From the NCBI GenBank assembly GCA_021201635.1, contig JAJQEM010000035.1, forward strand, positions 1 to 51,434: a stretch of 51,434 nucleotides of DNA, written 5' to 3'. Positions 5,377 through 20,755 of the stretch are shown piece by piece. The position numbers and the translations under genes are program-made. The number at the start of each line of letters is the position of its first letter. The first letter of the stretch is position 1. Source of the DNA: Clostridiales bacterium (lineage in GTDB: Bacteria; Bacillota; Clostridia; Oscillospirales; Oscillospiraceae). Under the pieces are notes generated by a model. It searched no databases. It saw only the letters and a list, made by a program, of their open reading frames with translations, and had not been told where the DNA came from.

Positions 5377-5518
5377 GGCGAAGCCTCCTTTCCCCGGTTG
5401 TTTTTCGCACCCTATTATATCCAATTCGGCGGTTTGGGGCAACAGGGTGGGGAAAGTTTTTGGGCATATGTTGGCTTCCTTTCGCAGAGGTTGAAAAGCA
5501 GCATAAAACCAGCCATCA

Positions 5519-5646
5519 GCGAATTCGCCGCAGGACTTTAGCGTACCGGAGTTCCTGCCGCTCTCCCTCAGTCTGCCCTTCGGGCAGCCAGCTCCACCGT
5601 CAAGCGGCACTTCCGCTACGCTCCATGCCTCAAAGAGGGAGCCAAG
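5519..5646. repeat. REP-like modular palindromic repeat, copy A
   Basis: GAATTCGCCG...CTCCCTCAGTC-hairpin-CAGCTCC...CCTCAAAGAGGGAGCC; related copies at 11590-11875 and 46710-46818. Confidence 0.8.
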
Positions 5647-5808
5647 GGGAACCTCGCTTGCGTATCCTGTCCGAATCTTCCCCACTCTTTCTTCTTACCG
5701 CCGCTCTGTCTCGTTCTGTCTCTCTGCGCCTGTTTGCGCAGATTCGCAACTCTCCGTTCTTCTTTCCTCTCTTTTTCGTTGTAAATTTGTTTTTTGCATT
5801 TCGCAAAT

Positions 5809-5822
5809 AGCACAAATGTTCT
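5809..5822 (+). promoter_or_regulatory. Possible LexA/DinR (SOS) box upstream of the phage-like operon
   Basis: AGCACAAATGTTCT, one mismatch to GAAC-N4-GTTC. Confidence 0.35.
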
Positions 5823-5877
5823 ATCCTTTACTCAGCAAGAGCGCCGGGGATGTCCGGTGCAGGAAGGAGGAGAGGAC

Positions 5878-6396
5878 ATGACCCAGGCGGAGTTCTGGCA
5901 GCAGCCGGAGCAGCTGGCCCTGATCCGGGGCTGGGTCCGGGACGGCGTGGAAAGCAAGGAGATCGCCCGCCGGATGGGGCTCAAGCCCCTGGGACTGCGG
6001 ATCTGGCGAACCAGGTATCCGGCCATCGGTGCAGCCCTGGCCCAGACGGGAGAGCTCACCGACTACCAGGTGGAGGAGGCGCTGCTCAAGGCGGCCATGG
6101 GCTACCGATACACCGAGGAAAAGACGGAGCAGACCGAACGGGGAGACAAACTGGTTTCCACGGAGAAGGAGGTCAGCCCCAATGTCACCGCCATCAGCCT
6201 GTGGCTGAAACGGCGAAAGCCGGAGGTGTGGGACTGCGGAGAGGAGGAGCCGGAGCCTCCGGCGGAGAACAATCTGTTTGCGGCCCTGGGAGACTGGGAG
6301 AGAGAGGAGTTGAGAGGGGATGCACTACCGGACGTTCAGCAGACGGCAGAGGCTGGTGCTCACCTGGTGGAAGCACCCGGCGTTCCGGAATCGTGA
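5878..6396 (+). CDS. Terminase small subunit-like HTH protein
   Basis: GWVRDG..EIARRMG..W...YP..VEEALLKAAMGY..PNVTAISLWLKRRKPEVW resembles clostridial phage TerS; GGAGG RBS; overlaps the TerL start. Confidence 0.75.
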   Translation: MTQAEFWQQPEQLALIRGWVRDGVESKEIARRMGLKPLGLRIWRTRYPAIGAALAQTGELTDYQVEEALLKAAMGYRYTEEKTEQTERGDKLVSTEKEVSPNVTAISLWLKRRKPEVWDCGEEEPEPPAENNLFAALGDWEREELRGDALPDVQQTAEAGAHLVEAPGVPES

Positions 6397-7567
6397 CGGC
6401 ATCATCTGCGACGGCTCGGTGCGTTCAGGTAAGACGGTGAGCATGGCGGTGGGCTTCCTGCTGTGGAGCATGGAGACCTTTGACCGGCAGCGGTTCGCCC
6501 TCTGCGGCAAGACCATCGAGAGCCTGCGGCGGAACGTGTCCGGGCTGCTGCCCCAGTGGATGGAGGGGCTGTGCTCCATGGAGGAGCGGCGGGGAGAGAA
6601 CCGGCTCACCGTGCGCATGAACGGGCATGAAAACGACTACTACCTGTTCGGTGGCAAGGACGAGGGGAGCTACGCTCTCATCCAGGGCATGACCCTGGCG
6701 GGGGTGCTGTTTGACGAGGTGGCCCTGATGCCCCGCTCCTTTGTGGAGCAGGCGTTGGCCCGGTGCAGCGTGGAGGGCTCCAAATTCTGGTTCAACTGCA
6801 ACCCGGAGGGACCCACCCACTGGTTTTATCAGAGCTGGCTCACCCGGGCGGAGGAGCGGAACCTGCTCTATCTCCACTTCACCATGGAGGACAACCCCGC
6901 TCTCTCCCCCGCCATCCGGCAGCGGTATGAGCGGCTTTATACCGGAGTGTTCTATCAGCGGTATGTCCAAGGGCTTTGGGCGGCGGCAAAGGGCCTGATC
7001 TACGATATGTTCCGGCCGGAGGTACACGTCACGGAACGGCTGCCGGAGGCCGGGCGGGGGTGCTACGTCTCCGTGGACTACGGCACCCAGAACCCCACCG
7101 TCTTTCTGCTGTGGCAGAAAGGGGAGCGTGGCCGGTGGTGCTGTCTGCGGGAGTATTACTGGTCGGGCCGGGATCGGATGCGGCAAAAGACCGACGGGGA
7201 GTACGCCGACGATCTGGAGGTGTTTCTGGACGGGGTGAAGCCCCGGGCGGTGATTGTGGACCCGTCGGCGGCCAGCTTCATCGCCCTGCTCCGGCAGCGG
7301 GGATACCTCGTCCTGGGGGCGGACAACCAGGTGCTCTCCGGCATCCGCCGGGTGGGCGACCTGCTCCGGGAGGAGCGGCTGCTCTTCTCCCCTGGCTGCG
7401 TCCGGACCGTGGAGGAGTTCCGCAGCTACGTCTGGGACGAGGACGGGGCCGGACAGGACAGGCCGGTGAAGGACCACGACCACTGTATGGACGCCCTGCG
7501 GTACTTTGTGAGCACCGTGCTGGTGCGCAGCCAGGCTCGGGCGGGGAAGCGCCCCAGAGGGCTGTGA
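6320..7567 (+). CDS. Terminase large subunit, PBSX family
   Basis: Walker A DGSVRSGKT, Walker B GVLFDE, NCNP, nuclease acidic motifs SVDYG and DHCMDA. Confidence 0.95.
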   Translation: MHYRTFSRRQRLVLTWWKHPAFRNRDGIICDGSVRSGKTVSMAVGFLLWSMETFDRQRFALCGKTIESLRRNVSGLLPQWMEGLCSMEERRGENRLTVRMNGHENDYYLFGGKDEGSYALIQGMTLAGVLFDEVALMPRSFVEQALARCSVEGSKFWFNCNPEGPTHWFYQSWLTRAEERNLLYLHFTMEDNPALSPAIRQRYERLYTGVFYQRYVQGLWAAAKGLIYDMFRPEVHVTERLPEAGRGCYVSVDYGTQNPTVFLLWQKGERGRWCCLREYYWSGRDRMRQKTDGEYADDLEVFLDGVKPRAVIVDPSAASFIALLRQRGYLVLGADNQVLSGIRRVGDLLREERLLFSPGCVRTVEEFRSYVWDEDGAGQDRPVKDHDHCMDALRYFVSTVLVRSQARAGKRPRGL

Positions 7568-7585
7568 TCTATTTTGTGATATGAG

Positions 7586-9022
7586 GTGATTGAGATGATT
7601 TTGTATGTGGACAGACAGGATCTCCCCGACCCGGAGCATCCCGACCCGGCGGTGCTCCGGTGGTGCATCCGCAAGGCGGAGATCGCCAACGGGCGGTATC
7701 AGCGGCTGGACCGGTATTACCGGGGTGAGCATGACATCCTCCGGCGCAGCGGCGGAGAGGGAGAGAGCCGGGTGGCGGTGAACTACGCCCGGTATGTAGT
7801 GGACATCGCCCTGGGTTACTATCTGGGAACGGATGTGAAATACGACCCCAACCCCCAGAGCTGGAATGAGGCTCCCTCCCGGGGACTGCTGGGACAGCGG
7901 GTGCTGGACATCACCCCTCTGCTGACCTGCTATGACCGGCAGCACATCAGCCAGGTAGACCGGGAGATCGGCAAGACCATGGGGGTGATGGGGGACTGCC
8001 TGGAGCTGTGCTATGCCTCCTGCGAGGCAAACCCCCACCCCAGAAGCGCCCGGATCGACCCGAGAAACGGCATTCTCCTCTGCGACGCCACCGTGGAGCA
8101 CAACAAGCTGCTGGCCCTGGTGTGGGAGCGGCGGGAGTGGCCCTCCGGCGAGCAGTTTTACGCCGTCACCTGCTACACCGGCCGGACGGAGCGGGACTAT
8201 ATCAGCGGCGACCTGGAGACGGCGGTCTTTCGGCCCATCGGCCCGGCCCGGGAGCACTACTTTGGGGCGGTGCCGGTGATCGCCTATGAGAACAACGCCG
8301 AGCGCCAGGGGGATTTTGAGCAGATCATGAGCCTGATCGACGCCTATGACGATCTGATGTCCAGCCGTCTCACCGACAAGCGGCGGTTCGTGGACGCACT
8401 GCTGGTGTTCTTCGGCATGACCCTGGCCCCCGGGGAGGAGGAAAAGCTGCTCCGGGAGCGGTTCATCGACGGGGCGCCGTTGGACGCCCGGGCGGAGTAC
8501 ATCCAAAAGACCTTCGATGAAGCGGGGGTGCAGGTGCTGGCGGACAGCCTGGTGCGGGAGATGCACAAGATGACCCTGACGGTGGACATGTCCGACGAGC
8601 AGTTTTCCGGCAACGCCTCCGGGCAGGCGTTGAAGCTGAAGCTGCTGACCATGGAGCAGCTGGTGCAGGGCAAGATGCGGCAGATGGAGCGGGGATTGCG
8701 GGAGCGGTTCGAGCTGTACAGCCATTGGCTGGCCGTCAAGGGGGAGATGGCCCCGGTGTCGGCGGCGGAGGTGGACGTGGTGTTCACCCGGAATCTGCCC
8801 ATCAATGAGAGCGAGACGGTGGACATGGTGACCCGCCTCCGGGGGATGGTGGACGACCAGACACTGCTGGGACAGCTCTGGTTCATCCGGGACCCGGCGG
8901 AGGCCCTGCGGAATCTCCGCCGTCAGGAGCAGCTACAGGGGACAGCAGGCAATGCCTGTGACCATAACAGGACGGGGTGGGCCCTCGGGAACGGCCCGGA
9001 CGGAGAGGAGAAGGTCAGATGA
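7586..9022 (+). CDS. Phage portal protein, SPP1 gp6-like
   Basis: YYRGEHDIL, VNYARYVVD, GDFEQIMSLIDAYD, FSGNASGQALKLKL, FTRNLP motifs; follows TerL. Confidence 0.92.
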   Translation: MIEMILYVDRQDLPDPEHPDPAVLRWCIRKAEIANGRYQRLDRYYRGEHDILRRSGGEGESRVAVNYARYVVDIALGYYLGTDVKYDPNPQSWNEAPSRGLLGQRVLDITPLLTCYDRQHISQVDREIGKTMGVMGDCLELCYASCEANPHPRSARIDPRNGILLCDATVEHNKLLALVWERREWPSGEQFYAVTCYTGRTERDYISGDLETAVFRPIGPAREHYFGAVPVIAYENNAERQGDFEQIMSLIDAYDDLMSSRLTDKRRFVDALLVFFGMTLAPGEEEKLLRERFIDGAPLDARAEYIQKTFDEAGVQVLADSLVREMHKMTLTVDMSDEQFSGNASGQALKLKLLTMEQLVQGKMRQMERGLRERFELYSHWLAVKGEMAPVSAAEVDVVFTRNLPINESETVDMVTRLRGMVDDQTLLGQLWFIRDPAEALRNLRRQEQLQGTAGNACDHNRTGWALGNGPDGEEKVR

Positions 9023-9558
9023 GTGCAGAGGAGCTGAGACAGGAGCGGCCGGACTTGGACACGCTGCTCCGGGAGGATCGGGACTATCAGTCCGCCTACG
9101 ACAAAAAGGTGAGCCAGGCGCTGGCCACCGCCCGGGCCAACTGGGAACGGGACCGTCAGGGGGAGGAGGACCGGCTCCGGCAGACGCTGGAGGCGGAGAT
9201 GCAGGAGACGCTGGAGCAGGAGCGGCAGGTGCTTGCCGGGCAGCGGCAGGACTTTGACCGGCGGCTCCGGCAGGTGGCGGTGGGGGAGGCCCTGCAGCAG
9301 CGGGGCCTGGATGCCCGTTTTGCCCCCTGGATCGCCGGCGAGAGCGACGAGGACTCCGCCCAGCGGGTGGATGCGTTCACCGGGCTGTTTCAGGAGGCCC
9401 TGTCCCAGGCGGTGGCCGGACGGATGCGGGGGGAGGCCGCCCCCAGAGAACCGGACCGGCCCCGGGAGCTGACCCGTGAGCAGGTGCGGGGGATGTCCCC
9501 CCGTGAGATCAACCGGAACTGGGAACAAATCTCCGGTCTGCTTCGGGAGAGCCAATAA
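9019..9558 (+). CDS. Capsid scaffold protein (DUF4355-like)
   Basis: YQSAYDKKVSQALATARANW, charged coiled coil, lies between portal and capsid; ATGA overlap with portal. Confidence 0.8.
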   Translation: MSAEELRQERPDLDTLLREDRDYQSAYDKKVSQALATARANWERDRQGEEDRLRQTLEAEMQETLEQERQVLAGQRQDFDRRLRQVAVGEALQQRGLDARFAPWIAGESDEDSAQRVDAFTGLFQEALSQAVAGRMRGEAAPREPDRPRELTREQVRGMSPREINRNWEQISGLLRESQ

Positions 9559-9599
9559 CACAGTACGACAATGACAACATAAGGAAAGGATGAGAGCGA

Positions 9600-10445
9600 A
9601 TGGCATTTTCCAATTTTATCCCTGAGATCTGGTCTGCCCGGCTGCTGGAGCATCTGGACAACGTCCACGTCTACGCCGGTCTGATGAACCGGGACTATGA
9701 GGGCGAGATTCGGGCCTATGGCGACACGGTACACATCAACCAGCTGGGGGACATCACCATCAGCGACTACACCGGTGCGGACATCGCAGACCCGGAGGAG
9801 CTGGACGGCTCCATGCAGGATCTGACCATCGACAAGGCCAAGTATTTCAACTTCCAGGTGAAGGACGTAGACCACGCCCAGTCCAACCCCAAGCTGGTGG
9901 ACGCCGCCATGCAGCGGGCCAGCTACGGCATGAACGACGTGATCGACCAGTACCTGGCCTCCCTGCTGCTGGAGGGGGCGGACAGCGGCAACATTCTCTA
10001 TGACGACAGCTCCGCCGTCACCCCCACCAGCGCAGACGCCTATGACTACCTGGTGGACCTGGGGGTGCTGCTCAACGAGGCCAACGTCCCCATGCTGGGC
10101 CGGTGGGTGGTGCTGCCTCCCTGGTACCACGGTCTGCTGCTGAAGGACTCCCGGTTCGTGGGCAACGGCACCGGTTACAACCAAGCCATCCTTCAGGGCG
10201 GTCTGGTGGGTGAGGCCGCCGGCTTCCAGATCCATCTGTCCAACAACGTCCCCAACACCAACGGCTCCCTGTACAAGGTCATCGCCGGCACCAGCGCCGC
10301 CGGTGCCTATGCCGAGCAGCTGGTGGAGCTGGAGGCCTATCGGCTGGAGAAGAATTTCTCCGACGCCGTGAAGGGGCTCCACGTCTACGGGGCCAAGGTG
10401 GTCCAGCCCAAGGCCCTGGCGGTCATGACCTGCAACAAGGGGTAA
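9600..10445 (+). CDS. Major capsid protein (P22-coat-like family)
   Basis: FIPEIWSARLL, NRDYEGEI..GDTVHIN, FSDAVKGLHVYGAKV; AAGGA RBS. Confidence 0.9.
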   Translation: MAFSNFIPEIWSARLLEHLDNVHVYAGLMNRDYEGEIRAYGDTVHINQLGDITISDYTGADIADPEELDGSMQDLTIDKAKYFNFQVKDVDHAQSNPKLVDAAMQRASYGMNDVIDQYLASLLLEGADSGNILYDDSSAVTPTSADAYDYLVDLGVLLNEANVPMLGRWVVLPPWYHGLLLKDSRFVGNGTGYNQAILQGGLVGEAAGFQIHLSNNVPNTNGSLYKVIAGTSAAGAYAEQLVELEAYRLEKNFSDAVKGLHVYGAKVVQPKALAVMTCNKG

Positions 10446-10449
10446 GGCC

Positions 10450-10809
10450 ATGACGAGCGAGCAGATGGAGTCCAGTCTGGAGCGGCTGGCGAGAAAGCTG
10501 GGGCTGGAAGATCCTGAGGAGGACGTGACCCTGCTGCTGGAGGACGAGCTGCTGGACGCCGAGGGGGAGATGCTGATCTATCTGGGGGTGAGCTCCCTGG
10601 AGGAGCAGTTCCTCTATAAGGCGGTGGAGCTGGCGGCCCTCTACTACCAGCGGGACCGTTGGGAGCTGGAGGGCGGCGGGCTCCGCTCCTCCGCCTACTC
10701 CGAGGGGCAGATCAGCCAGTCCGAGCAGTATCTCTCCCCCGCCGAGCTGCGGGCCGGAACGGCGGAGATTTTGGACAGCCTGGCCCGGTTCCGGAGGGTG
10801 TCATGCTGA
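10450..10809 (+). CDS. Head-tail connector (SPP1 gp15-like)
   Basis: 119 aa after capsid; AVELAALYY and SAYSEGQISQS pattern. Confidence 0.7.
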   Translation: MTSEQMESSLERLARKLGLEDPEEDVTLLLEDELLDAEGEMLIYLGVSSLEEQFLYKAVELAALYYQRDRWELEGGGLRSSAYSEGQISQSEQYLSPAELRAGTAEILDSLARFRRVSC

Positions 10810-11177
10810 GCCGTCAGACCCCTCTGGCCTGGCGGCAGGGGTTCTCCCTCTACCGGCGCAGTCTGGAGACGGACAGCATGGGCGACCCGGCGGCGGTCTA
10901 TCACATGGACGAGCCGGACTTCACCGCCGCAGACGGGACGGAGGACGGCATCTGCTGGCAGAGCGTCCAGTCCTGGCAGAGCGGCGGGCGGCTGACCTCC
11001 GGTCTCTCCCGCAAGGAGCCGGGGGAGAGCTCCACCGGGGCGGTGGAGGGATGCCTCTTCACCGACCTGGAGCTGTCGCCGGGGGACCGTCTGTCCATCG
11101 GGGAGGGGCTATACGAGGTGCGCTCCCTCCAGCAGTGGCCGGGGCACCGGAAGGTGCTGGCCCAGCGGATCGGGTGA
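10803..11177 (+). CDS. Head closure protein
   Basis: Position in head-tail order; DSMGDP and LSPGDRL...YEV pattern; start MLSRQTP overlaps previous stop. Confidence 0.65.
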   Translation: MLSRQTPLAWRQGFSLYRRSLETDSMGDPAAVYHMDEPDFTAADGTEDGICWQSVQSWQSGGRLTSGLSRKEPGESSTGAVEGCLFTDLELSPGDRLSIGEGLYEVRSLQQWPGHRKVLAQRIG

Positions 11178-11188
11178 GGTGATACGAA

Positions 11189-11578
11189 ATGTCAGACATC
11201 AGATGGGCCATGGTAGACGCCCGGGAGCAGGTGCGCCAGGCGTTGGAGGAGATGGAGACGGAGTGCTCCTTCTCCCTCCGGGGGCGGTTCGCCCCCGGCA
11301 GTGCGGAGCCGCCCGTGGTGGTCTGGGGGGAATACTCCAACATCGCCACCGACTGTCCGGTGGTGGACGAGCTGGTCTTTCAGGTGGACCTGTGGACCGC
11401 CGACCGGGACAGTCAGAACGAGCTGGCGGCGGCGGTGAATCAGGCGCTGGGGCAAATCGGTCTGCGGCGCATCTACGCCGGGCCGGACGGCTATGAGGAC
11501 ATCGGGCCGGGGTACTGCCGCAAGACCCTCCGGTTTGGCAGGAGGGTGGACAAGCGGACGCTGCGGTTGGTGGACTGA
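11189..11578 (+). CDS. Tail completion/terminator protein
   Basis: 129 aa, FQVDLW..ELAAAVNQALGQIGLRR; precedes tail tube gene. Confidence 0.65.
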   Translation: MSDIRWAMVDAREQVRQALEEMETECSFSLRGRFAPGSAEPPVVVWGEYSNIATDCPVVDELVFQVDLWTADRDSQNELAAAVNQALGQIGLRRIYAGPDGYEDIGPGYCRKTLRFGRRVDKRTLRLVD

Positions 11579-11589
11579 GGGGGCCAGGG

Positions 11590-11875
11590 GCGAATTCGCC
11601 GATGGATTTCTGCTGGACGGCAGTGCCTGCCGCACTCCCTCAGTCTGCCCTTCGGGCAGCCAGCTCCCTCAGAGAGGGAGCCAAGAGTGGAAGTGAATTT
11701 CACTTTCCTCAGTCGCCTTGCGGCGACAGCTCCGCCGTCAAGCGGCACTTCCGCTGCGCTCCCTGCCTCAGAGAGGGAAACAGGGGCGGATTCGCCGGGG
11801 GATTTCTGCTGAACGACAGTACCTGCGGCACCCCTCAGTCAGCTTACGCTGACAGCTCCCCTTTCAGGGGAGCCA
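11590..11875. repeat. Three tandem REP-like palindromic repeats (11590-11685, 11707-11778, 11786-11875)
   Basis: Each has CCTCAGTC-hairpin-(G/C)CAGCTCC and a GAGGG/GGGGAGCC end; 33 bp (11635-11667) identical to 5563-5595. Confidence 0.8.
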
Positions 11876-11914
11876 GAAAACAAACGCACAAACGCAGAAA
11901 GGAATGATACGACT

Positions 11915-12328
11915 ATGGCAACACAGGGACTTTCCACCATTGGGATTCAGGTCAAGGTCAACGAGGTGGCGATGAACTACGTCACCGAGATCGGCGACAT
12001 CGGCGGCACTCCCGCCACGCTGGATGCCACCTGTATGCAGGACAGCATGAAAAAGAGCGTCCCCGGCGTGCAGGACGTGAAGGCGTTTGAGGTGACCTAC
12101 CTCTACGACAACACCGCCGCCGACTCGGACTATCGGGTGCTCAAGGCCCTCCAGACGGCGGGAAAGGTGGTGCCCATCGGGGTGGTATTCCCCGACGGAA
12201 CCACCTTCACCAGCTCCGGCTACGTCAGCACCTATGTGGTGGGTGCGAAGGTGGATGAGCTGATCTCCGCCAAGCTGTCTATGACCCTCCAGAGCGACTG
12301 GACGGTCACCGACCCCAGCGCAGCGTAA
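11915..12328 (+). CDS. Major tail tube protein
   Basis: IGDIGGTPATLDAT..VPGVQD..FPDGTTFTSSGYV siphovirus tube pattern. Confidence 0.85.
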   Translation: MATQGLSTIGIQVKVNEVAMNYVTEIGDIGGTPATLDATCMQDSMKKSVPGVQDVKAFEVTYLYDNTAADSDYRVLKALQTAGKVVPIGVVFPDGTTFTSSGYVSTYVVGAKVDELISAKLSMTLQSDWTVTDPSAA

Positions 12329-12341
12329 CAGACGTTCCAAT

Positions 12342-12371
12342 GGCCGTCCCGTTCTTCGGAGCGGGACGGCC
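12342..12371 (+). terminator. GC-rich hairpin after the tail tube gene (attenuator or mRNA stabiliser)
   Basis: GGCCGTCCCG / CGGGACGGCC stem, TTCG loop, no U-tract. Confidence 0.5.
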
Positions 12372-12397
12372 TGAGTAAATGAAACGGAGGGATTTTT

Positions 12398-13147
12398 ATG
12401 GCAAGAAAGTATCTCCCCCTGCGGGGAGACGGAAAGGAATACCGGCTGCGGCTGACGGTGGGAGGACAGCGGAACCTCCGGGAACGGTTCCAGGAGGAGA
12501 CCCTCCAGACCGTCCTCCTGGCCGCCGGAGACAATGAGCGGCTGTGCGCCCTGCTGGGGGAGGCTCTGAGCTGGCCCGGCAGCGGCAACGACTGCACCGA
12601 CGGAGAGCAGTTTCTGGACCTGCTGGTGGACTGGGGCTACCAGGGACAGGAGCGGTTCGGGGCGCTGGCCTTTGACCTGGCGGCGGCCTCCGGTCTGCTG
12701 ACGGCAGAGCAGGCAGGACAGCTCAAGGCCGCTCTCCGCTCGGCGGTGGAGCAGGCCTACACCCGGATGGAGACACCAGAGACGGCGGAGGAGGAACAGA
12801 CCGATGCCCCCTTTTCCCCGGACCTGACGCTGGACGAGCTGCTGGAGGCCGGCGTCCGGGCTGGGGGCAGTCCCTCGGAGCTGGAAGACTGGACCTGGAG
12901 CGAGGTGCTCCAGCTCGTCCGGTGCCGCCGGGAGGCGGAGCGGCAGCGGTATCAGGCCCTGAGCGTTATCGCCTGGGAGCAGGCAGTGTTCACCGCCCGG
13001 CTGCTGGCAGGGGAGCGGGCGGAGCCGGTATACGAGCGGTTCCCCTTCTGGGAGGAATCGGAACAGGCATCCCTCCGGCTGGCGGGCTATCGGTCCATGA
13101 TGGAGCGCCTGGCCGGGAACAAGAGAGAGGTGAGAGAACATGAGTGA
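12398..13147 (+). CDS. Tail assembly chaperone, G and T parts in one frame
   Basis: Between tube and tape measure; KEYRLRLT N-part and WTWSEV C-part joined at CCCCCTTTT (12807-12815). Confidence 0.7.
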   Translation: MARKYLPLRGDGKEYRLRLTVGGQRNLRERFQEETLQTVLLAAGDNERLCALLGEALSWPGSGNDCTDGEQFLDLLVDWGYQGQERFGALAFDLAAASGLLTAEQAGQLKAALRSAVEQAYTRMETPETAEEEQTDAPFSPDLTLDELLEAGVRAGGSPSELEDWTWSEVLQLVRCRREAERQRYQALSVIAWEQAVFTARLLAGERAEPVYERFPFWEESEQASLRLAGYRSMMERLAGNKREVREHE

Positions 13148-15011
13148 CAGTACACAGGAGGCGGCCCGGCTCCGGGCAGAGCTGTCGGCGGCCAACGATG
13201 CCGCCCTCCGCTTTGCCGCCTCCGCCTCCCAGATGCAGAGCGCCTATACCTACGCCCTGAACCGGATGAACAGCGCACTGAGCCAGCTCTCCGGGGCCTT
13301 CCGGGGGCTGGCAGCGGTGGGGATGAACGCCTTTTCCGGCCTGATCTCCGCCGTGACCCCGGCGGTGCAGACCCTATCCAATCTGGCGGTGAAGCTGTTC
13401 GGGGCCACGGTCTGGCAGTCGGGGACGAAGGCGGCAAACGCCACCGCCTCCGCCATCAACTCTGTGACAAAGGCGGCCAAATCTGCGGCCAGCGCCCAGC
13501 GGGATCTGTATGGCTTTGACCAGATCACCCGGGTCAGCGCCGGTTCCGGCTCCGGCTCGGGCGGCAGCTCCTCGAGAGGAGGCTCCGCCGGTGGCGGCGG
13601 GGACGCAGAGGGGAGCTGGGTGCGTATCTCCGGGCTGCTGGACGACTTTGCTGATAAGGCGAAGTCGATTTTAGGGCAGATCTGGCAGCCCTTTGCCGAC
13701 GCCTGGGACAGCCAGGGGGCCGGGGTGGTAGAGGCGGCCCAAACCGCTCTCTCCAATATCAGCTTGGCGGCGGCAGCTGTGGGCAGCAGCTGGCTCAAGG
13801 CCTGGACTGGCGGGGCCGGGGAGCAGGCGGTGTCCTCGGTGCTGGGCATCGTCCAAAATCTGCTGACAGCGGTGGGCAATGTGGCCGCCCGGTTCCGGGA
13901 GGCCTGGACAGCCGGGGGCGCAGGAGACGCCATTTTTCAAAATCTGGCGGACATCGCCAACGTCTTTCTGGACGCCCTGGAGGACATGGCCGCTGCCACC
14001 GCAGTCTGGGCGGGACAGCTGAATTTCTCCGGCCTGGTCAGTGGCTTTGGCAATCTGGTATCCGCCTGCAAGCCGTTGGTAGAGCTACTGTCCAACGGGC
14101 TGAACTGGGCGTATACCAACGTGCTGCTGCCCCTGGCGGGGTGGGTCATCCAGTCGGCGGGACCGGCGGCGGTGAACGTGCTGACCTCGGCAGTCAAGCT
14201 GCTCACCTCCGCCCTGAGCCTGTTCCAGCCGTTGGGCCAGACGGTGTGGAGCAATCTGCTCCAGCCCCTGGGCCAGTGGACAGGGCAGACGATCACTGCC
14301 GCCCTGAAAACGGTATCCGCCGCCTTTAACACCCTGGCGGAGGTGCTGAACGGTCTGCCCGCCGGGTGGGAGGCGCTGAAGGCGAAGGCGTCCGGCATCT
14401 GGGAGTCCATCAAAGCCGCCCTGACCGGGGCGGCCAACGGCAGCAAGACCGCCGTGGTCAGCGCCTTTACCCAGATGACCAGCAATGCGGTCAATCAGGG
14501 GAACAGCCTGAAAACCAAGCTGACCGGCATCTTCGGCACCGTCGTCTCTACCCTCCAGAGCAAGCTGAACGGGGTCAAGACTGCCCTGACCACTCCCTTT
14601 AAAAACGGGCTGAACGCAGTGATCGATCTGGTGAACCGGATGATTACAAAAATCAACTCGGCACTGAAATTCTCCTGGTCAGCCATCAAGGTGCTGGGCA
14701 AGGTCATCGTCCCGGCGGGGAGCGTGACCCTGGCCAAGCTCCCCACCATCTCCAAGCTGGCGGAGGGCGGCGTCACCACCAGACCGGTGTTCTCCCTGAT
14801 CGGCGAGGCGGGCCGAGAGGCGGTGCTGCCTCTGGAGCGGAACACGGACTGGATGGACCGGCTGGCAGAGCGGCTGGCCCAGGCGGAGGGCCGCCAAGGA
14901 GACAGTCTGGTGCTGGAGGTCCACGTGGGAGATGAGCTGCTGGCAAAGCAGGTCATCCGCAGGGTCAACGAGACCACCCGGCGAACCGGGTGCTGTCCCA
15001 TCTACGTGTGA
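13140..15011 (+). CDS. Tail tape measure protein
   Basis: 623 aa, Ala/Gly/Ser-rich with periodic Trp; LYGFDQIT and LAEGG..IGEAGREAVLPL motifs. Confidence 0.85.
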   Translation: MSDSTQEAARLRAELSAANDAALRFAASASQMQSAYTYALNRMNSALSQLSGAFRGLAAVGMNAFSGLISAVTPAVQTLSNLAVKLFGATVWQSGTKAANATASAINSVTKAAKSAASAQRDLYGFDQITRVSAGSGSGSGGSSSRGGSAGGGGDAEGSWVRISGLLDDFADKAKSILGQIWQPFADAWDSQGAGVVEAAQTALSNISLAAAAVGSSWLKAWTGGAGEQAVSSVLGIVQNLLTAVGNVAARFREAWTAGGAGDAIFQNLADIANVFLDALEDMAAATAVWAGQLNFSGLVSGFGNLVSACKPLVELLSNGLNWAYTNVLLPLAGWVIQSAGPAAVNVLTSAVKLLTSALSLFQPLGQTVWSNLLQPLGQWTGQTITAALKTVSAAFNTLAEVLNGLPAGWEALKAKASGIWESIKAALTGAANGSKTAVVSAFTQMTSNAVNQGNSLKTKLTGIFGTVVSTLQSKLNGVKTALTTPFKNGLNAVIDLVNRMITKINSALKFSWSAIKVLGKVIVPAGSVTLAKLPTISKLAEGGVTTRPVFSLIGEAGREAVLPLERNTDWMDRLAERLAQAEGRQGDSLVLEVHVGDELLAKQVIRRVNETTRRTGCCPIYV

Positions 15012-15030
15012 TGAGAGGAGGAACGAAGCT

Positions 15031-15414
15031 ATGGCAACGGTATCGGTCAGCGGTCTGACCATCAACGGGATGTCCATGCCCGACCCGGCTCTGGAGGGAG
15101 TGACCATCTCCACGGAAAAGGTGTGGTCGTCCAACACCGGGCGGACGGCCTCCGGCAGGATGGTGGGGAGCATTATCGCCACCAAGACCACCATCAAGAT
15201 CAAGTGGCCGGTGCTCACCACCGACCAGATCGCCCTCATCGAGGCGGCGGTCAGCGACCCGGACAGCCCCTTCGTCCCGGTGTCCTACACCGACATGTGC
15301 GGGGAGACGGTGGAGCGAACGGTGTATTTCGGCACCCCCAGCTACACCCTCTACTCCTGGGCGGACGGGCTGACCCTGGTGAAGGACGCCTCAGTGGAGG
15401 GCATCGAGCAGTAG
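15031..15414 (+). CDS. Distal tail-like protein (DUF6711-like)
   Basis: EKVWSSNTGRTASGRMVG..K..IKIKW; directly after tape measure; GGAGG RBS. Confidence 0.7.
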   Translation: MATVSVSGLTINGMSMPDPALEGVTISTEKVWSSNTGRTASGRMVGSIIATKTTIKIKWPVLTTDQIALIEAAVSDPDSPFVPVSYTDMCGETVERTVYFGTPSYTLYSWADGLTLVKDASVEGIEQ

Positions 15415-15425
15415 GGTCATACAAA

Positions 15426-15458
15426 GCGGCGGCTCCGTCCTTCGGGTCGGGGCCGCTG
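15426..15458 (+). terminator. Hairpin closing the phage-like operon
   Basis: GCGGCTCCG..TTCG..CGGGGCCGC stem starting about 12 nt after the last stop. Confidence 0.5.
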
Positions 15459-15465
15459 CGCACCC

Positions 15466-16385: not shown

Positions 16386-16408
16386 ACTATCTGTTGAAAA
16401 TATGATAT

Positions 16409-16492
16409 GCGGATGTGCTGGAATTGGTAGACTGGCAAGCTTGAGGTGCTTGTGCTCGAATGGGCGTACGGGTTCGAGTCCCGTCATCCGCA
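16409..16492 (+). tRNA. tRNA-Leu (anticodon GAG)
   Basis: Acceptor GCGGATG/CATCCGC, D-loop TGGTAGAC, anticodon stem CAAGC/GCTTG with loop TTGAGGT, long variable arm, GGTTCGAGTCC; CCA not encoded. Confidence 0.95.
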
Positions 16493-16505
16493 TTAACGAC
16501 AGCAT

Positions 16506-16545
16506 CATCCGGACCGACTCTCCTCTGGGGGAGGCAGGTTCGGAT
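16506..16545. repeat. Imperfect hairpin CATCCG...TTCGGAT after the tRNA
   Basis: Alignable with 17115-17154; followed by a T-tract. Confidence 0.55.
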
Positions 16546-16591
16546 TATTTGTTTTTTCGGTCCATTGGAGCGTGCGCTGTGAGGTGGGCAA

Positions 16592-17065
16592 ATGGGACTT
16601 CTTGAATGTGCAAGCGGCGCCTCTGTCTGGCGAGGCTATGACTACTTTAAAAGGGGAAACGTGAAAAGCGTCGAAAAAATGGAAGAAAATGTTTTTTCGG
16701 CAGCCGTTTCGGGGAGCGCCGTCAAGCCCTATGCTGTAGAGCTTCGCATCGATCACCCCCGCAAGTCAAAATGCAGCTGTCCCCACGCAAACGGCAAACG
16801 GATCGTATGCAAGCACATGGTAGCTGTGTATTTCACCGTGTTCCCCCAGCAGGCCGAAGCATTTTATGTGGAAGCGATGGCTTACCAGGAGGAGCAGGAG
16901 GCGCAGGCAGAGGAGCTTTCCGACAGAGTTTGCCAGTATGTGCAGAAGATGAAGAAGGCCGAGCTTCAGCAGGCACTGCTGGAGTTGTTGTTCGACGGTC
17001 CCGAATGGCAATTTGACCGTTTTCTCCGTGAATACAGGTTAGATGAAGATGAAGGCCGCTGTTAG
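16592..17065 (+). CDS. SWIM zinc-finger protein
   Basis: CSC-x8-CKH motif; GAGG RBS; visibly lower GC than neighbours. Confidence 0.85.
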   Translation: MGLLECASGASVWRGYDYFKRGNVKSVEKMEENVFSAAVSGSAVKPYAVELRIDHPRKSKCSCPHANGKRIVCKHMVAVYFTVFPQQAEAFYVEAMAYQEEQEAQAEELSDRVCQYVQKMKKAELQQALLELLFDGPEWQFDRFLREYRLDEDEGRC

Positions 17066-17172: not shown

Positions 17173-18791
17173 TTACCCCAGAAACGCCGTCACCACCGCT
17201 CGCAGCTCCTCCGGCAGTTCCTCCAGGGCGGAGATCTTTTCCCCGTTCACCCGGGCGACGAAGCCGTCCCCGGTCAGATAGAAGCCGTTGTTGTCACTGT
17301 TCTTCATGGCAGCCCCATCGTCAAAGAGGGTGAACTTGTCCCGATAGGGCAGATAACCGAAGGGGCACAGACAGGCGCAATTGCCGCACTCGTTACAGAG
17401 CGCCTCGATGTGCACCGCCTTTTTCAGCTCCGGCAGGGCCAGATTGGCCCGGTTGGGGCACACGTCCACGCAGTTCCGGCACTTGTAGCAGGCCAGGCTG
17501 TCCAGAGGACGCTTTACCGTCCTGCGCTCAGGCTTTTTCTGATAATAGGGGTCGGCGCTCACCGACGCCACCAGCTCGTCCAGGGCCGCCACGTCCACCC
17601 GGGCGGGGACCGTCTCCGGGACTTGGGCGCAGAGCCGGGAGAGGTTTTTGTACCCCCCTGCTGGAGCAGCAGGGTCGCCACCGTCACCGGGGCGATACCG
17701 GCGGACAGCACCTGGGCCACGTTGTGGGTGTCGATGCCCCCGGAGAAGGAGACGGGCAGCGTCCCCCCGAAGGCCCGGCTCAAAAGCTGGGCGGTGCGGA
17801 TGGAGAGCAGGAACAGCGGCTTGCCGGAGAGGTACATGGTCTCCCCGGGCAGCTCGCCGTTGCGGATGGCCACCGGGAAGGTATTGGTCAGCTTCACCCC
17901 CAGGGTCAGGCCCAGAGAGTCCGCCAGGGCCTTCAAATCAGTGAGCAGCTCCACGGCATAGTCCGGCTGGAGGTCGCGGTCAAAGCCCTCCCGGTCAAAG
18001 GTCAGATAGCCGTAGCCGTTCTCGTCCAGTACCTGCCGGGCGGCGTCGTAGCCCACCAGGGTGGGGTTACACTTGACGAAGGTGTTCAGCCCCTTCTCCT
18101 CCAGCAGATAGGCAATCATCCGCCGGATCTCCCCTACCGGACATCCGTGGAGGGTGGAGAGGGTGACTGTGTTACAGATTTTGGCAGGAATGGAGTTGAC
18201 ATAATCTTCATTCACCACCCGGAACAGCTCCGGATGCGCTCTGACCTGGGACAGATACAGGCTCCACACCGGGGCACAGGAAGCGTCCTTCATCGTCTCG
18301 ATGAACCGGTCCACCTTTTCCGACTGCAGTCCCGCCAGGTCGTAGCCCACGGACATATGGAACTGGAAGCCCTCCGGGTCCCCCAAATCGAACTCCCTGG
18401 CCAGCAGGTGAATGACGATCCACGCCTTGATGTACTCCTCCGCCGCCTGGCCGATGGTCAGCTCGGTGGACCACTCCACATTGTACGCCTCTCCGGAGAC
18501 GTAGATACAGGGCTTGTCCACCGGCAGGTCCTCGCCGTCGATGATCTGGACGGTTTTCAGCTCGAAAATGCGGCCTCCCGCCCCATAGGCGGCAATCAGG
18601 TTGTTTGCCAGTTGGGTGTGAGGCCCCGCAGCGGGGCCGATGGGAGTCTCCACCCGTCCGCCGCAGAAGTCCACCGGGCACGCCTTGGGCCGGACTGCCG
18701 GGACGCCGAACAGGGTATTGCGCTCCCGCAGCTCGTTCACAGCGGTACAGAGCAGGGTCTCAAAGGGCAGGGGGTTCATTCGGTCACTCAT
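17173..18791 (-). pseudogene. ygfK: Short YgfK-like oxidoreductase, frameshifted at a G6 run (17653-17658)
   Basis: MSDRM, GPAAGPHTQL, ELKTVQ, NVEWSTEL, KCNPTL, KLTNTFPV; C-terminal CRNCVDVCPNRAN and CNECGNC in another frame; adding one G restores QGGYKNL. Could be a sequencing error. Confidence 0.75.
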
Positions 18792-19741
18792 TTTTCTCGC
18801 TCCTTCCCGTCGGGGGCGGCGCACTCGGCGGCGGTCCCCCGCAAAATGTCGATGCCGTGGCCCAGGCTGGGGAGGAGAAATTCCAGGCTCTCCCGCACCG
18901 CTTTGGGACTGCCAGGCAGATTGACGATCAGCGTTCTGCCCCGGATGACGCTGGCCCCCCGGCCCAGCATGGCCCTGGGGGTGATTTGCAGGGAGTACCA
19001 GCGGATGGCCTCGGCGATGCCCGGGGCGTTCCGCTCCGCCACCGCCAGGGTGGCCTCCGGGGTGCGGTCTCTCTCCGAAAATCCGGTGCCCCCGGTGGTC
19101 AGCACCAGAGCCACCTGCCGCCCGTCCGCCAGCCGACACAGCTCCCGCTCCAGCCTCTTCTGCTCGTCCGGGAGGAGCAGGGTCTCCACCACCCGGTAGC
19201 CCGCCGCCTCCGCCATTTGGACGGCCAGGGGGCCGCTCTTGTCCTCCCGCTGGCCGCAGGCCCCCTTGTCGCTGAGGGTGATCACCGCCGCCGTGGGCCG
19301 TTTGTCCGGGTTGTCTGTCAGGGAAATCTCGTCCCCCACACGAATGACGCCGCCCCGGAGCACCTGGGCAAAGACGCCGTTGGTGGGCATAATACATTTG
19401 CCCACCCGCTGAAAGATCTCACAATGGCTGTGGCACTCCTTGCCGATCTGGGTCAGCTCCAGCAGAGCGTCCCCGATCTGAAAGCAGGTCCCCACCGGCA
19501 GGCTCCGCAGGTCGAAACCCTCCACGATGAGGTTTTCCCCGAAGTCTCCGGGCTGCACTCCGGCCCCCTGGGCGTTGAAGGCGTCGATGACCTCCTGTCC
19601 CAGCAGGCTGACCTGGCGATGCCAGTTGCCGCCGTGGGCGTCTCCCTCCAGGCCGAAGCCCTCCACCAGCCGGACGGAATCCACCGGCCCTTTGGCTGTC
19701 CCCCGCCGGGGGCTGATGCAAATTCCTCTGATGATGCCCAT
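18788..19741 (-). CDS. MOSC domain - MogA/MoaB molybdenum cofactor protein fusion
   Basis: GLEGDAH, FGENL, TQIGKECH (MOSC) then REDKSG, TTGGTG, TPEAT, NLPGSP (MogA). Confidence 0.9.
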   Translation of the reverse strand: MGIIRGICISPRRGTAKGPVDSVRLVEGFGLEGDAHGGNWHRQVSLLGQEVIDAFNAQGAGVQPGDFGENLIVEGFDLRSLPVGTCFQIGDALLELTQIGKECHSHCEIFQRVGKCIMPTNGVFAQVLRGGVIRVGDEISLTDNPDKRPTAAVITLSDKGACGQREDKSGPLAVQMAEAAGYRVVETLLLPDEQKRLERELCRLADGRQVALVLTTGGTGFSERDRTPEATLAVAERNAPGIAEAIRWYSLQITPRAMLGRGASVIRGRTLIVNLPGSPKAVRESLEFLLPSLGHGIDILRGTAAECAAPDGKEREK

Positions 19742-19776
19742 GGGAAAGCACTCCCTCTCATTTTGTGGTTCTGCTG

Positions 19777-20755
19777 TCAGCCGCCGATGGCCGACATTCC
19801 CCGCCGCTCCAGGCCGGTCTGGGCCTGGTTCTCGGCAAAGCGGTGGCCCTTTGGCTTGCTCCAAACAGCGGCGGACAGGGCCGCCTTTATCGTCTCTCCA
19901 GAGGCCCCCGCCCGGAGCAGCTCCCGGAGATTCACCGTCCCCTGATACTGGAGACAGGGCTTCACCCAGCCGTCGGCAGTCAGCCGCAAACGGTTGCAGC
20001 CGTCGCAAAAGGGGGCGGAGCATGGGCTGATAAAGCCCACCAGTCCTGCAAAATCTGGGACTGAATAATAAATCGCCGGGCCGTTCCCCCCGCTCATTCA
20101 CCGGAGTCAGAGGGCCGTACCGTCCCTCCAGCTCCTGTATCAGCGCCTTCCGAGTCACGGGGCGGTAGCTTTTCCCCCGGCCCAGAGGCATGGTCTCGAT
20201 ATACCGCACCCACACCTGCCGGGTGCGGGCCAGCTCCGCCACCTCGGCGGGGTTCCGGTCTGTGATGCCCTCCCCCGCCACGCAGTTCACCTTGACGTGG
20301 GAGAACCCGGCGCAGAGGGCGGCGTCCAGCCCCTCCAGCACCCGCTCCAGGCCGTCCGTCCCGGTGAGGGCGGCGTAGGACGCCCGGTCAAGGGTGTCCA
20401 GGCTGATATTTACCCCGGAAATACCCGCCTCCGCCAGTTGTTCCGCCTGTGCTGAGAGCAGCAGGCCGTTGGTGGTCAGGGTGATGTCTCCGATGCCGGG
20501 TATCTCATACAATCTCCTCACCAGCTCCGGCAGTCCGGGGCGGAGCAGGGGCTCTCCCCCGGTGAGCTTGAGCCGGGAGATGCCCAGCTCTGCGGCGGCG
20601 GAGACGACGGTACACAGCTCTTCGTCTGTCAGCAGCGTCTCCTCCGGCAGCCAGCGCACCGGCCCTGACCCGAGGCAGTAGCCGCACCGGAGATTGCACC
20701 GGTCGGTCAGGGAGATGCGGAGGTAGTCGATCTCCCGCCCGTACTGATCTCTCAT
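19777..20755 (-). pseudogene. moaA: GTP 3',8-cyclase MoaA, frameshifted at a G6 run (20086-20091)
   Basis: YLRISLTDRCNLRCGYC and TGGEP in one frame; GNGPA..FCDGCNRLRLTADG..KPCL..MSAIGG in another. Could be a sequencing error. Confidence 0.85.

Follow-up and report, generated by a model that had tools for sequence, protein, structure and literature searches.

We analyzed a 51,434-nucleotide (nt) stretch of DNA from a Clostridiales bacterium (GenBank assembly GCA_021201635.1, contig JAJQEM010000035.1), hereafter the window, which carries a phage-type head-and-tail operon at positions 5878-15414. We put at about 65% the probability that this operon belongs to an independently domesticated, siphovirus-type gene transfer agent (GTA), a system known here from its genes. 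More firmly, the sequences place it in a phage-derived particle system that is real and old, has been under selection, and extends over several loci. Three defining features of GTAs that can be decided from sequence, as given in the consulted part of PMC9662315, the source of these features, are found here: a particle-forming set of proteins, full endogenization, and mostly vertical inheritance. All parts of the particle set (head, neck, tail, tip, and lysis) are present as judged by family matches and fold, and the genes occupy four loci that are surrounded by host genes and share a promoter motif, which marks the system as endogenized and multi-locus.

Gene content and setting of the operon

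The window is contig C161 of a genome of 1.85 Mb, 98% complete and divided into 167 contigs. The operon, which we annotated with Pfam, PHROGs, and NCBIfam profiles, comprises twelve plus-strand open reading frames (ORFs), co-oriented and free of stops, that run from the terminase small subunit (TerS) to a distal-tail protein. A preliminary description of this DNA had counted eleven co-oriented, uninterrupted ORFs; the orientation and the absence of stops held up, the number did not, and one ORF, a 249-amino-acid (aa) chaperone, is a fusion. Packaging is represented by a TerS with an N-terminal helix-turn-helix (HTH) (5878..6396; phrog_309, E = 3e-28) and a PBSX-family terminase large subunit, TerL, with conserved motifs (6320..7567; TIGR01547, E = 8.5e-57). 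An SPP1-type portal (7586..9022; PF05133, E = 2e-72), a head scaffold (9019..9558; PF14265, phrog_172), and the major capsid protein (9600..10445; phrog_267, E = 2e-69; Protein Data Bank [PDB] entry 8e16, E = 3.5e-35) come next. They are followed by a head-tail adaptor (10450..10809; phrog_132, E = 3e-6), a likely head-closure protein assigned by its position in an order conserved in relatives (10803..11177), and a tail terminator (11189..11578; phrog_78, E = 6e-10; PF11367 weak). The remaining ORFs encode the tail tube protein (11915..12328; PF08813, phrog_158), with a hairpin behind it at 12342-12371; a likely tail assembly chaperone in fused G/GT form, recognized by position and represented by two ORFs in relatives (12398..13147); a 623-aa tape measure protein (13140..15011; phrog_1535, E = 2e-79); and a likely distal tail protein (Dit) of 127 aa (15031..15414; phrog_1194). 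The head-closure and chaperone ORFs (starting at 10803 and 12398) had no family match in Pfam, PHROGs, or NCBIfam, and neither the operon ORFs nor those of the second locus described below matched a contractile sheath family. This order is the siphovirus order that had been proposed, and the TerL ATPase and nuclease motifs, likewise described as intact, are so here and in 46-47 of 47 chromosomal copies.

We call the 127-aa ORF a likely Dit because of its position and its predicted tail-tube/Dit fold. The model, built from 61 sequences, reached a predicted local distance difference test score (pLDDT) of 90. When it was searched against 48,161 chains, the top matches were nearly all tail-tube, Dit, or Hcp-type proteins, and T5 pb9 aligned with a Z score of 8.3 and a root mean square deviation of 2.2 over 95 residues. 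Foldseek gave no match to the model at E 0.001, and PDB sequence searches with the Dit profile found nothing.

Among the 47 genes called in the window (flanks by profile annotation, the remaining genes judged from their translations), there is no integrase, repressor, replication, or lysis gene, and no attachment (att) site was found in the window. The flanks hold a leucine-rich-repeat (LRR)/vWA/AAA operon on one side and an inositol monophosphatase on the other, so that the preliminary description was right to report ordinary host genes, and no phage life-cycle genes, at either side. The genome has 4 tyrosine and 4 serine recombinase matches, all outside the window contig; one recombinase, at C33:31741, lies 15 kb from the tail-tip gene described below, with host genes between. 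By two family models (PF03237 and PF03354), the terminase of this operon is the only one found in the genome.

The operon also resembles the host in composition, as had been noted by eye. GC content is flat along the window, and GC content at third codon positions is 0.79-0.92 in the operon genes, compared with a genome median of 0.84. A genome-wide palindromic repeat occurs both upstream of the operon, as a cluster before the promoter (5500..5700; families D4 and D7; matches on 23 contigs), and between the terminator and tube genes (11571..11880; matches on 30 of 167 contigs), in keeping with the report of host repeats inside the operon. The spacer that contains the latter cluster differs in length among relatives, and within the operon host repeats were seen only between genes. 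The hairpin said to close the operon is present (15426..15459, plus strand; GC-rich, -30 kcal/mol for its segment), but it has no U-run and does not appear in the list of terminator-like structures.

Conservation, inheritance, and selection

All 36 genomes sampled from the genus carry the capsid gene, with identities of 75-100%, as do the remaining six, which were fetched in addition. A TerL match was obtained for 42 of the 43 genomes, among them all 33 of high quality; the genome without one is 69% complete. In a family-level sample of 300 genomes, 13 matched the capsid at E 1e-20: 5/5 of this genus, 5/5 of g40, which is its sister genus by RpoB, one g70 genome, and two distant genomes (48% and 38%). 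Gene order within the operon is constant across relatives. The record titled Clostridiales bacterium NK3B98 (L077), a cultured rumen isolate, has all twelve operon genes, at 49-85% identity. Among the named records with the cluster are 'Candidatus Onthomonas avicola' and two 'Candidatus Onthomonas sp.' entries, whose TerL (75-79%) and capsid (83-87%) resemble those of the window. The host genus is most likely Onthomonas (Oscillospiraceae), because only 1 of 24 named loci clearly exceeds these identities.

Inheritance of the operon has been mostly vertical, and it has diversified together with its hosts. For 43 genomes (38 of the genus, 5 of g40), we built one tree from ten operon proteins, concatenated, and another from RpoB. 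Prophage copies were excluded, as were six genomes in which RpoB was absent or short. The trees have 30 of 40 splits in common (random mean, 0.1), with a patristic correlation of 0.90, and the operon tree recovers 17 of the 20 well-supported RpoB splits (support 0.95 or higher) and contradicts 1. The congruence with the host tree that the preliminary description had made a test of its proposal is thus observed.

Selection has acted on the same genes. Ratios of nonsynonymous to synonymous substitution rates (dN/dS; Nei-Gojobori) in the nearest clade of seven genomes range from 0.015 for the capsid gene to 0.16, with dS at 0.12-0.23 compared with 0.19 for rpoB. Nine other clades gave 0.02-0.62, highest in g40 and clade B2, and the tape measure and both chaperone parts are likewise constrained. 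In none of the clades tested does any of the ten genes reach a ratio of 1, and the earlier view of an old, maintained system rather than a decaying prophage is sustained by this purifying selection.

One feature of this strain departs from the pattern. An extra base near 12807 fuses the two parts of the chaperone into the 249-aa ORF, whereas the parts are separate, with one base fewer, in 9/9 aligned relatives and in 4/4 sequencing runs. This strain's particle may be impaired, since long-tailed phages usually need both chaperone forms (G and GT), or the extra base may be an assembly error. The fusion, along with single broken copies in two relatives, could be taken to mean that the operon is a decaying prophage remnant without function. 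The dN/dS values below 1 throughout, the intact catalytic motifs, and the confinement of host repeats to intergenic positions speak otherwise. Because all ten genes are constrained in every clade tested, decay is refuted for the lineage; it could apply to this strain if the extra base is real, and overall it is the least credible of the explanations that we considered.

Tail-tip and lysis genes at separate loci

Separate baseplate or fiber and lysis loci, which the preliminary description had suggested looking for, are present in this genome: the tip and holin genes are on contig C33 and an endolysin gene is on C164. The operon of g40, like that of several clades within the genus, continues from Dit to a tail-tip gene, in several cases followed by a holin and a lysin. 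Here, a tail-tip gene, an 87-aa ORF, a gene for a carbohydrate-binding CBM5/12 protein, and a holin gene occupy C33:16300-13134, beside VanW-like and DUF2461 genes that come after the operon in relatives. In run X4, one contig spans these VanW-like/DUF2461 host genes and the tip gene, at a depth of 49 compared with 44-52 for the window. The stand-alone GH25 endolysin gene (C164:4070-4918) has homologues of 73-77% in six other genomes of the clade. A gene for a 58-aa phage-like protein (C23:3841-3665) was found in 9/43 genomes, strongly in 5, and may be clade-specific.

The break in the operon comes after Dit in this clade and before it in clade B2, and the severed pieces have been kept; Dit is retained elsewhere in 5/5 B2 genomes tested. 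The separated Dit and tail-tip genes of clade B2 (L242-L245, L367-L372, L148) share an operator-like site of the TATCACC..TGGAGATA type, and a site of this type also precedes terS in the g70 genome. At one locus (L370), a second Dit copy is followed directly by holin and lysin-like genes, without an intervening tail-tip gene.

We assign the putative tail-tip role from the gene's position after Dit in relatives and from PHROG tail matches; these carry the assignment because a PDB sequence search found nothing and the single-sequence structure model (pLDDT 34.6) was unusable. The N-terminal part of the protein is 88-90% identical among relatives, and the C-terminal half is 47-57% identical, with dS of 0.8-1.1. 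A ComEC-family gene was set aside as evidence; it is present, but also in 10 of 14 control genomes.

A predicted shared promoter with a LexA-type box

We predict a promoter core before terS (5794..5827, plus strand) that consists of TTGCAT, 22 nt, and a -10 hexamer, TATCCT. Box A, a predicted activator site (5733..5751, plus strand), stands 61 nt before TTGCAT, at the same offset as in 20/20 training promoters of other genomes, and has the top score in this genome. The terS and tip promoters of clade A share the form TTGCAT-N22-TAnnnT and a second box 60-61 nt upstream. With a matrix from the 20 training promoters, we scanned 50 candidate sites in this genome, the filter for which was relaxed after a first scan missed the sites of the 58-aa gene and the lysin. 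The scores were 20.8 for terS, 20.6 for the tip, 18.9 for the 58-aa gene on C23, and 10.4 for the lysin; the next was 2.3. The motif also precedes 10/10 stand-alone lysin copies examined (6.8-16.7) and 0/2 prophage copies of the same lysin.

A LexA-type box (5810..5821, plus strand) abuts the -10 hexamer, with one mismatch, in its left half, to the Firmicute LexA consensus. Boxes with 0-1 mismatch occur in 26/42 genus promoters, exact boxes in 3 of the 4 g40 promoters seen, and similar sites precede lexA and the genes upstream of recA in this genome. In g40, a gene for a CI-like repressor is divergent before terS, and TerS has no HTH segment. Regarding the activator, proteins resembling prophage late-gene activators had no match in this genome, and its CI-like gene on C150 is only 27-28% like that repressor. 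Two DUF6291 genes were rejected as replication partners: they were not found in 4 other genomes and had low box-A scores. These two genes (L273:3893-4762, L274; C47, C13) carry LexA-type boxes in near-identical promoters.

Relation to known systems

In the consulted part of a 2026 gut virome study (PMC12946183), GTA-like packaging is reported in Onthomonas: the text counts 3/25 events, and one table row names Onthomonas (a metagenome-assembled genome, MAG) with a first length peak of 5.9 kb. Its authors searched the Onthomonas MAG and three others, and the part consulted names an operon only for Faecalibacterium (FpGTA). The same part states that PBSX packs DNA without injecting it and leaves this question open for FpGTA. 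A bioRxiv report (10.64898/2026.07.08.737213) proposes GTA clusters in other clostridial genera, with Onthomonas unmentioned in the portion consulted. We found no published description of the present cluster in a search that mostly did not extend to subscription papers, nor to the supplementary figures of PMC12946183 and the bioRxiv supplements. If the genus is right, the cluster is the obvious candidate for the Onthomonas packaging, because all 43 genus genomes carry it and it holds the sole terminase found here with PF03237 and PF03354; it is likely the source of the short random chromosome fragments packaged in Onthomonas particles.

Faecalibacterium belongs to the same order as this host. 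As described in the consulted part of PMC12946183, FpGTA resembles the present system in being a structural operon of a Gram-positive gut anaerobe that lacks replication and integration genes, has a second locus with tail-end and lysis genes, and is near-universal in its genus. However, FpGTA is podovirus-like, with fragments of 8.4-8.9 kb, whereas the present operon encodes a long non-contractile tail, with tube, chaperone, tape measure, and Dit; this separation follows the published description of FpGTA. The likeness to RcGTA (Rhodogtaviriformidae) and other viriform GTAs, from the part of PMC9662315 consulted, is that they are siphovirus-type, multi-locus, vertically inherited, and host-regulated. 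The present system differs in its PBSX-family TerL and SPP1-type portal, which point to a separate origin, and in having a LexA-type box directly on the structural promoter. The only match to RcGTA models among 17 proteins was that of the tape measure, which scored 19.9 bits where the cut-off is 220. The system thus falls outside the RcGTA family. Its tail type differs from that of FpGTA.

PBSX of Bacillus subtilis has a contractile tail and is encoded at one locus. The present system resembles it in TerL family (TIGR01547), predicted SOS link, proposed host-DNA packaging, and, in g40, the CI-like repressor beside the operon, but it has no sheath gene and its genes are split over several loci. 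These likenesses raise the alternative of a PBSX-like killer particle, whose heads are filled with host DNA and whose tail kills competing relatives while the DNA goes undelivered. LexA-type control, lysis genes, the fast-diverging C-terminal half of the tail tip, and the precedent of PBSX packing without injecting (in the consulted part of PMC12946183) all favor such a particle. The absence of a sheath gene from the operon argues against it, as does constraint on the capsid and terminase that equals or exceeds that on the tail genes, and the variable tip would fit equally well with a GTA that tracks host surfaces. Known non-contractile killers (F-pyocins and monocins) are headless, which we also count against this explanation. 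On balance, a killer particle is the main alternative to a GTA and, in our judgment, an unlikely one.

Temperate siphophages of the same hosts (L043, L047, L048, L051, L118, L160-L162) share a homologous module in the same order, with capsids at up to 76%. Their gene sets include gp7 (Mu F) and, in most, gp10, unlike those of the chromosomal loci: neither gene was seen in any of 50 chromosomal loci examined, several of which are cut by contig ends. Two complete phage tape measures are 979 and 1122 aa long, compared with at most 723 in chromosomal clusters, and L051, L160, and L161 have phage-type genes upstream of the terminase.

Probable exchange with prophages and the weight of contrary evidence

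Prophages of the same hosts share the morphogenesis module, which speaks against a closed lineage; in the same genomes, their capsids are about 75% identical (up to 76%) and their TerL proteins 56-65%. In the capsid tree, chromosomal copies stand apart from phages, with the exception of one copy in a prophage region. A version of this tree rooted on L308 was discarded, as a long branch had misplaced the root. In L051 (7001-7852) and L158, a chromosomal-type capsid gene has phage genes around it and lies upstream of a prophage head module; the module has another gene at the capsid position, and the chromosomal TerL of the same genome is split.

The coexistence of prophages with related morphogenesis genes, and gene trees suggestive of exchange, would also suit a domesticated particle with another job, such as interference with temperate phages (through small heads or decoys) or programmed lysis with DNA release, packaging being incidental. 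For interference alone, the system would not need its own terminase, a complete tail, a tip, and lysis genes under one promoter motif, and it is conserved in genomes that have no second terminase match. We regard this alternative as improbable.

Several observations weigh against reading the system as a GTA. The TerL tree rejects a single clade of chromosomal copies (p-AU 0.023; long branches are involved), although one clade is not rejected for the portal (p-AU 0.143). At the locus, one genome (69% complete) has no TerS or TerL, TerL is split in another, and the capsid gene is split in a third. The tail-tip query missed 6/43 genomes, and some of its matches are prophage copies. The LexA-type box is mismatched here and weak or lost in 16/42 genus promoters, the chaperone gene of this genome is fused, and TerS has an HTH in this genus while FpGTA TerS has no DNA-binding domain (consulted part of PMC12946183). 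The host genus is deduced from similarity to named records, and it is the genus alone that connects the cluster with the 5.9-kb fragments. Finally, the flanks of the operon differ between close relatives: of the earlier expectation that the same cluster would sit at the same locus in relatives, presence throughout the genus was borne out and constancy of the flanking genes was not.

Host neighbors of the operon in relatives map to many contigs of this genome, in blocks of 1-5 genes; because they too are scattered in this way, the variable flanks point to general gene shuffling. Shuffling of gene order in few-gene blocks was also seen between genomes about 0.2 dS apart, in a genome background rich in palindromic repeats (L014-L016, L052, L053, L151, L228-L230). 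For the gene trees, exchange with phages is likely, and it is the simplest reading.

A helper-dependent mobile element (a capsid-forming satellite), or a prophage family repeatedly reduced at different sites, would account for the variable flanks, the rejected TerL monophyly, and the retained TerS HTH. It is contradicted by the congruence with RpoB, by the lack of integrase or replication genes at the loci fetched, and by host neighbor genes that have been shuffled just as freely. In addition, four sequencing runs of related strains show even depth across the operon and its flanks, without signs of amplification, and in IMG/VR, capsid relatives of at least 76% occur only on contigs shorter than 15 kb, those on contigs of 35-43 kb reaching at most 66%. 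We consider this explanation largely refuted and very improbable.

Proposed function of the particle

Under the GTA reading, the head-and-tail operon would be part of a host-owned particle, inherited with the chromosome and kept by selection, that packages random short stretches of host chromosomal DNA and delivers them to relatives. An activator would switch on the four loci together, and LexA would gate them after DNA damage in most species. The headful-type terminase would fill small heads without a specific start site, and the non-contractile tail, with its fast-changing tip, would bind related cells; a holin and an endolysin would lyse the producer. Judging from the literature, the fragments may be about 6 kb, too short for the roughly 14 kb of particle genes (packaged peak of 5.9 kb, if the literature link holds).

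We advance a fuller scenario tentatively, at slightly less than even odds: an independently evolved, long-tailed GTA in Gram-positive gut anaerobes, with LexA as its ancestral gate, whose genes became dispersed in a clade-specific manner and were rewired under shared promoter sites. It would still exchange packaging, tip, and lysin genes with temperate phages of its hosts, and it would make the 5.9-kb Onthomonas DNA seen in human gut viromes. The cluster offers a concrete candidate, with partner loci and regulatory sites, for packaging that lacks named genes. It also records stepwise domestication: phage genes were lost, the operon was split at different points, and matching promoters arose on the pieces. 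A functional system would be a damage-inducible route by which genes move and genomes are shuffled in a gut genus.

Additional observations

We discounted the tRNA-Leu at 16408 as a possible att site, since the variable islet is on its far side. At 16408-17065, this tRNA is followed by a lower-GC gene with a SWIM zinc finger; in run X4 the stretch is exchanged for 1918 other bases, making it a small insertion hot spot. At 17173-20755, molybdenum-cofactor and selenium-dependent oxidoreductase-like genes appear split over several frames, through assembly errors or decay.

In other families of the order, four loci (L057, L059, L061, L063) hold short clusters with a likely portal of 500-570 aa, a scaffold-sized gene, and a capsid at 32-37%. 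These clusters have no match to the tape measure of the window and are possibly podovirus-type and GTA-like. Lastly, a 100% complete member of the genus (G018) was binned with more than 20 unrelated terminase-bearing contigs, as would be expected either from a particle-enriched library with encapsidated host DNA or from loose binning.

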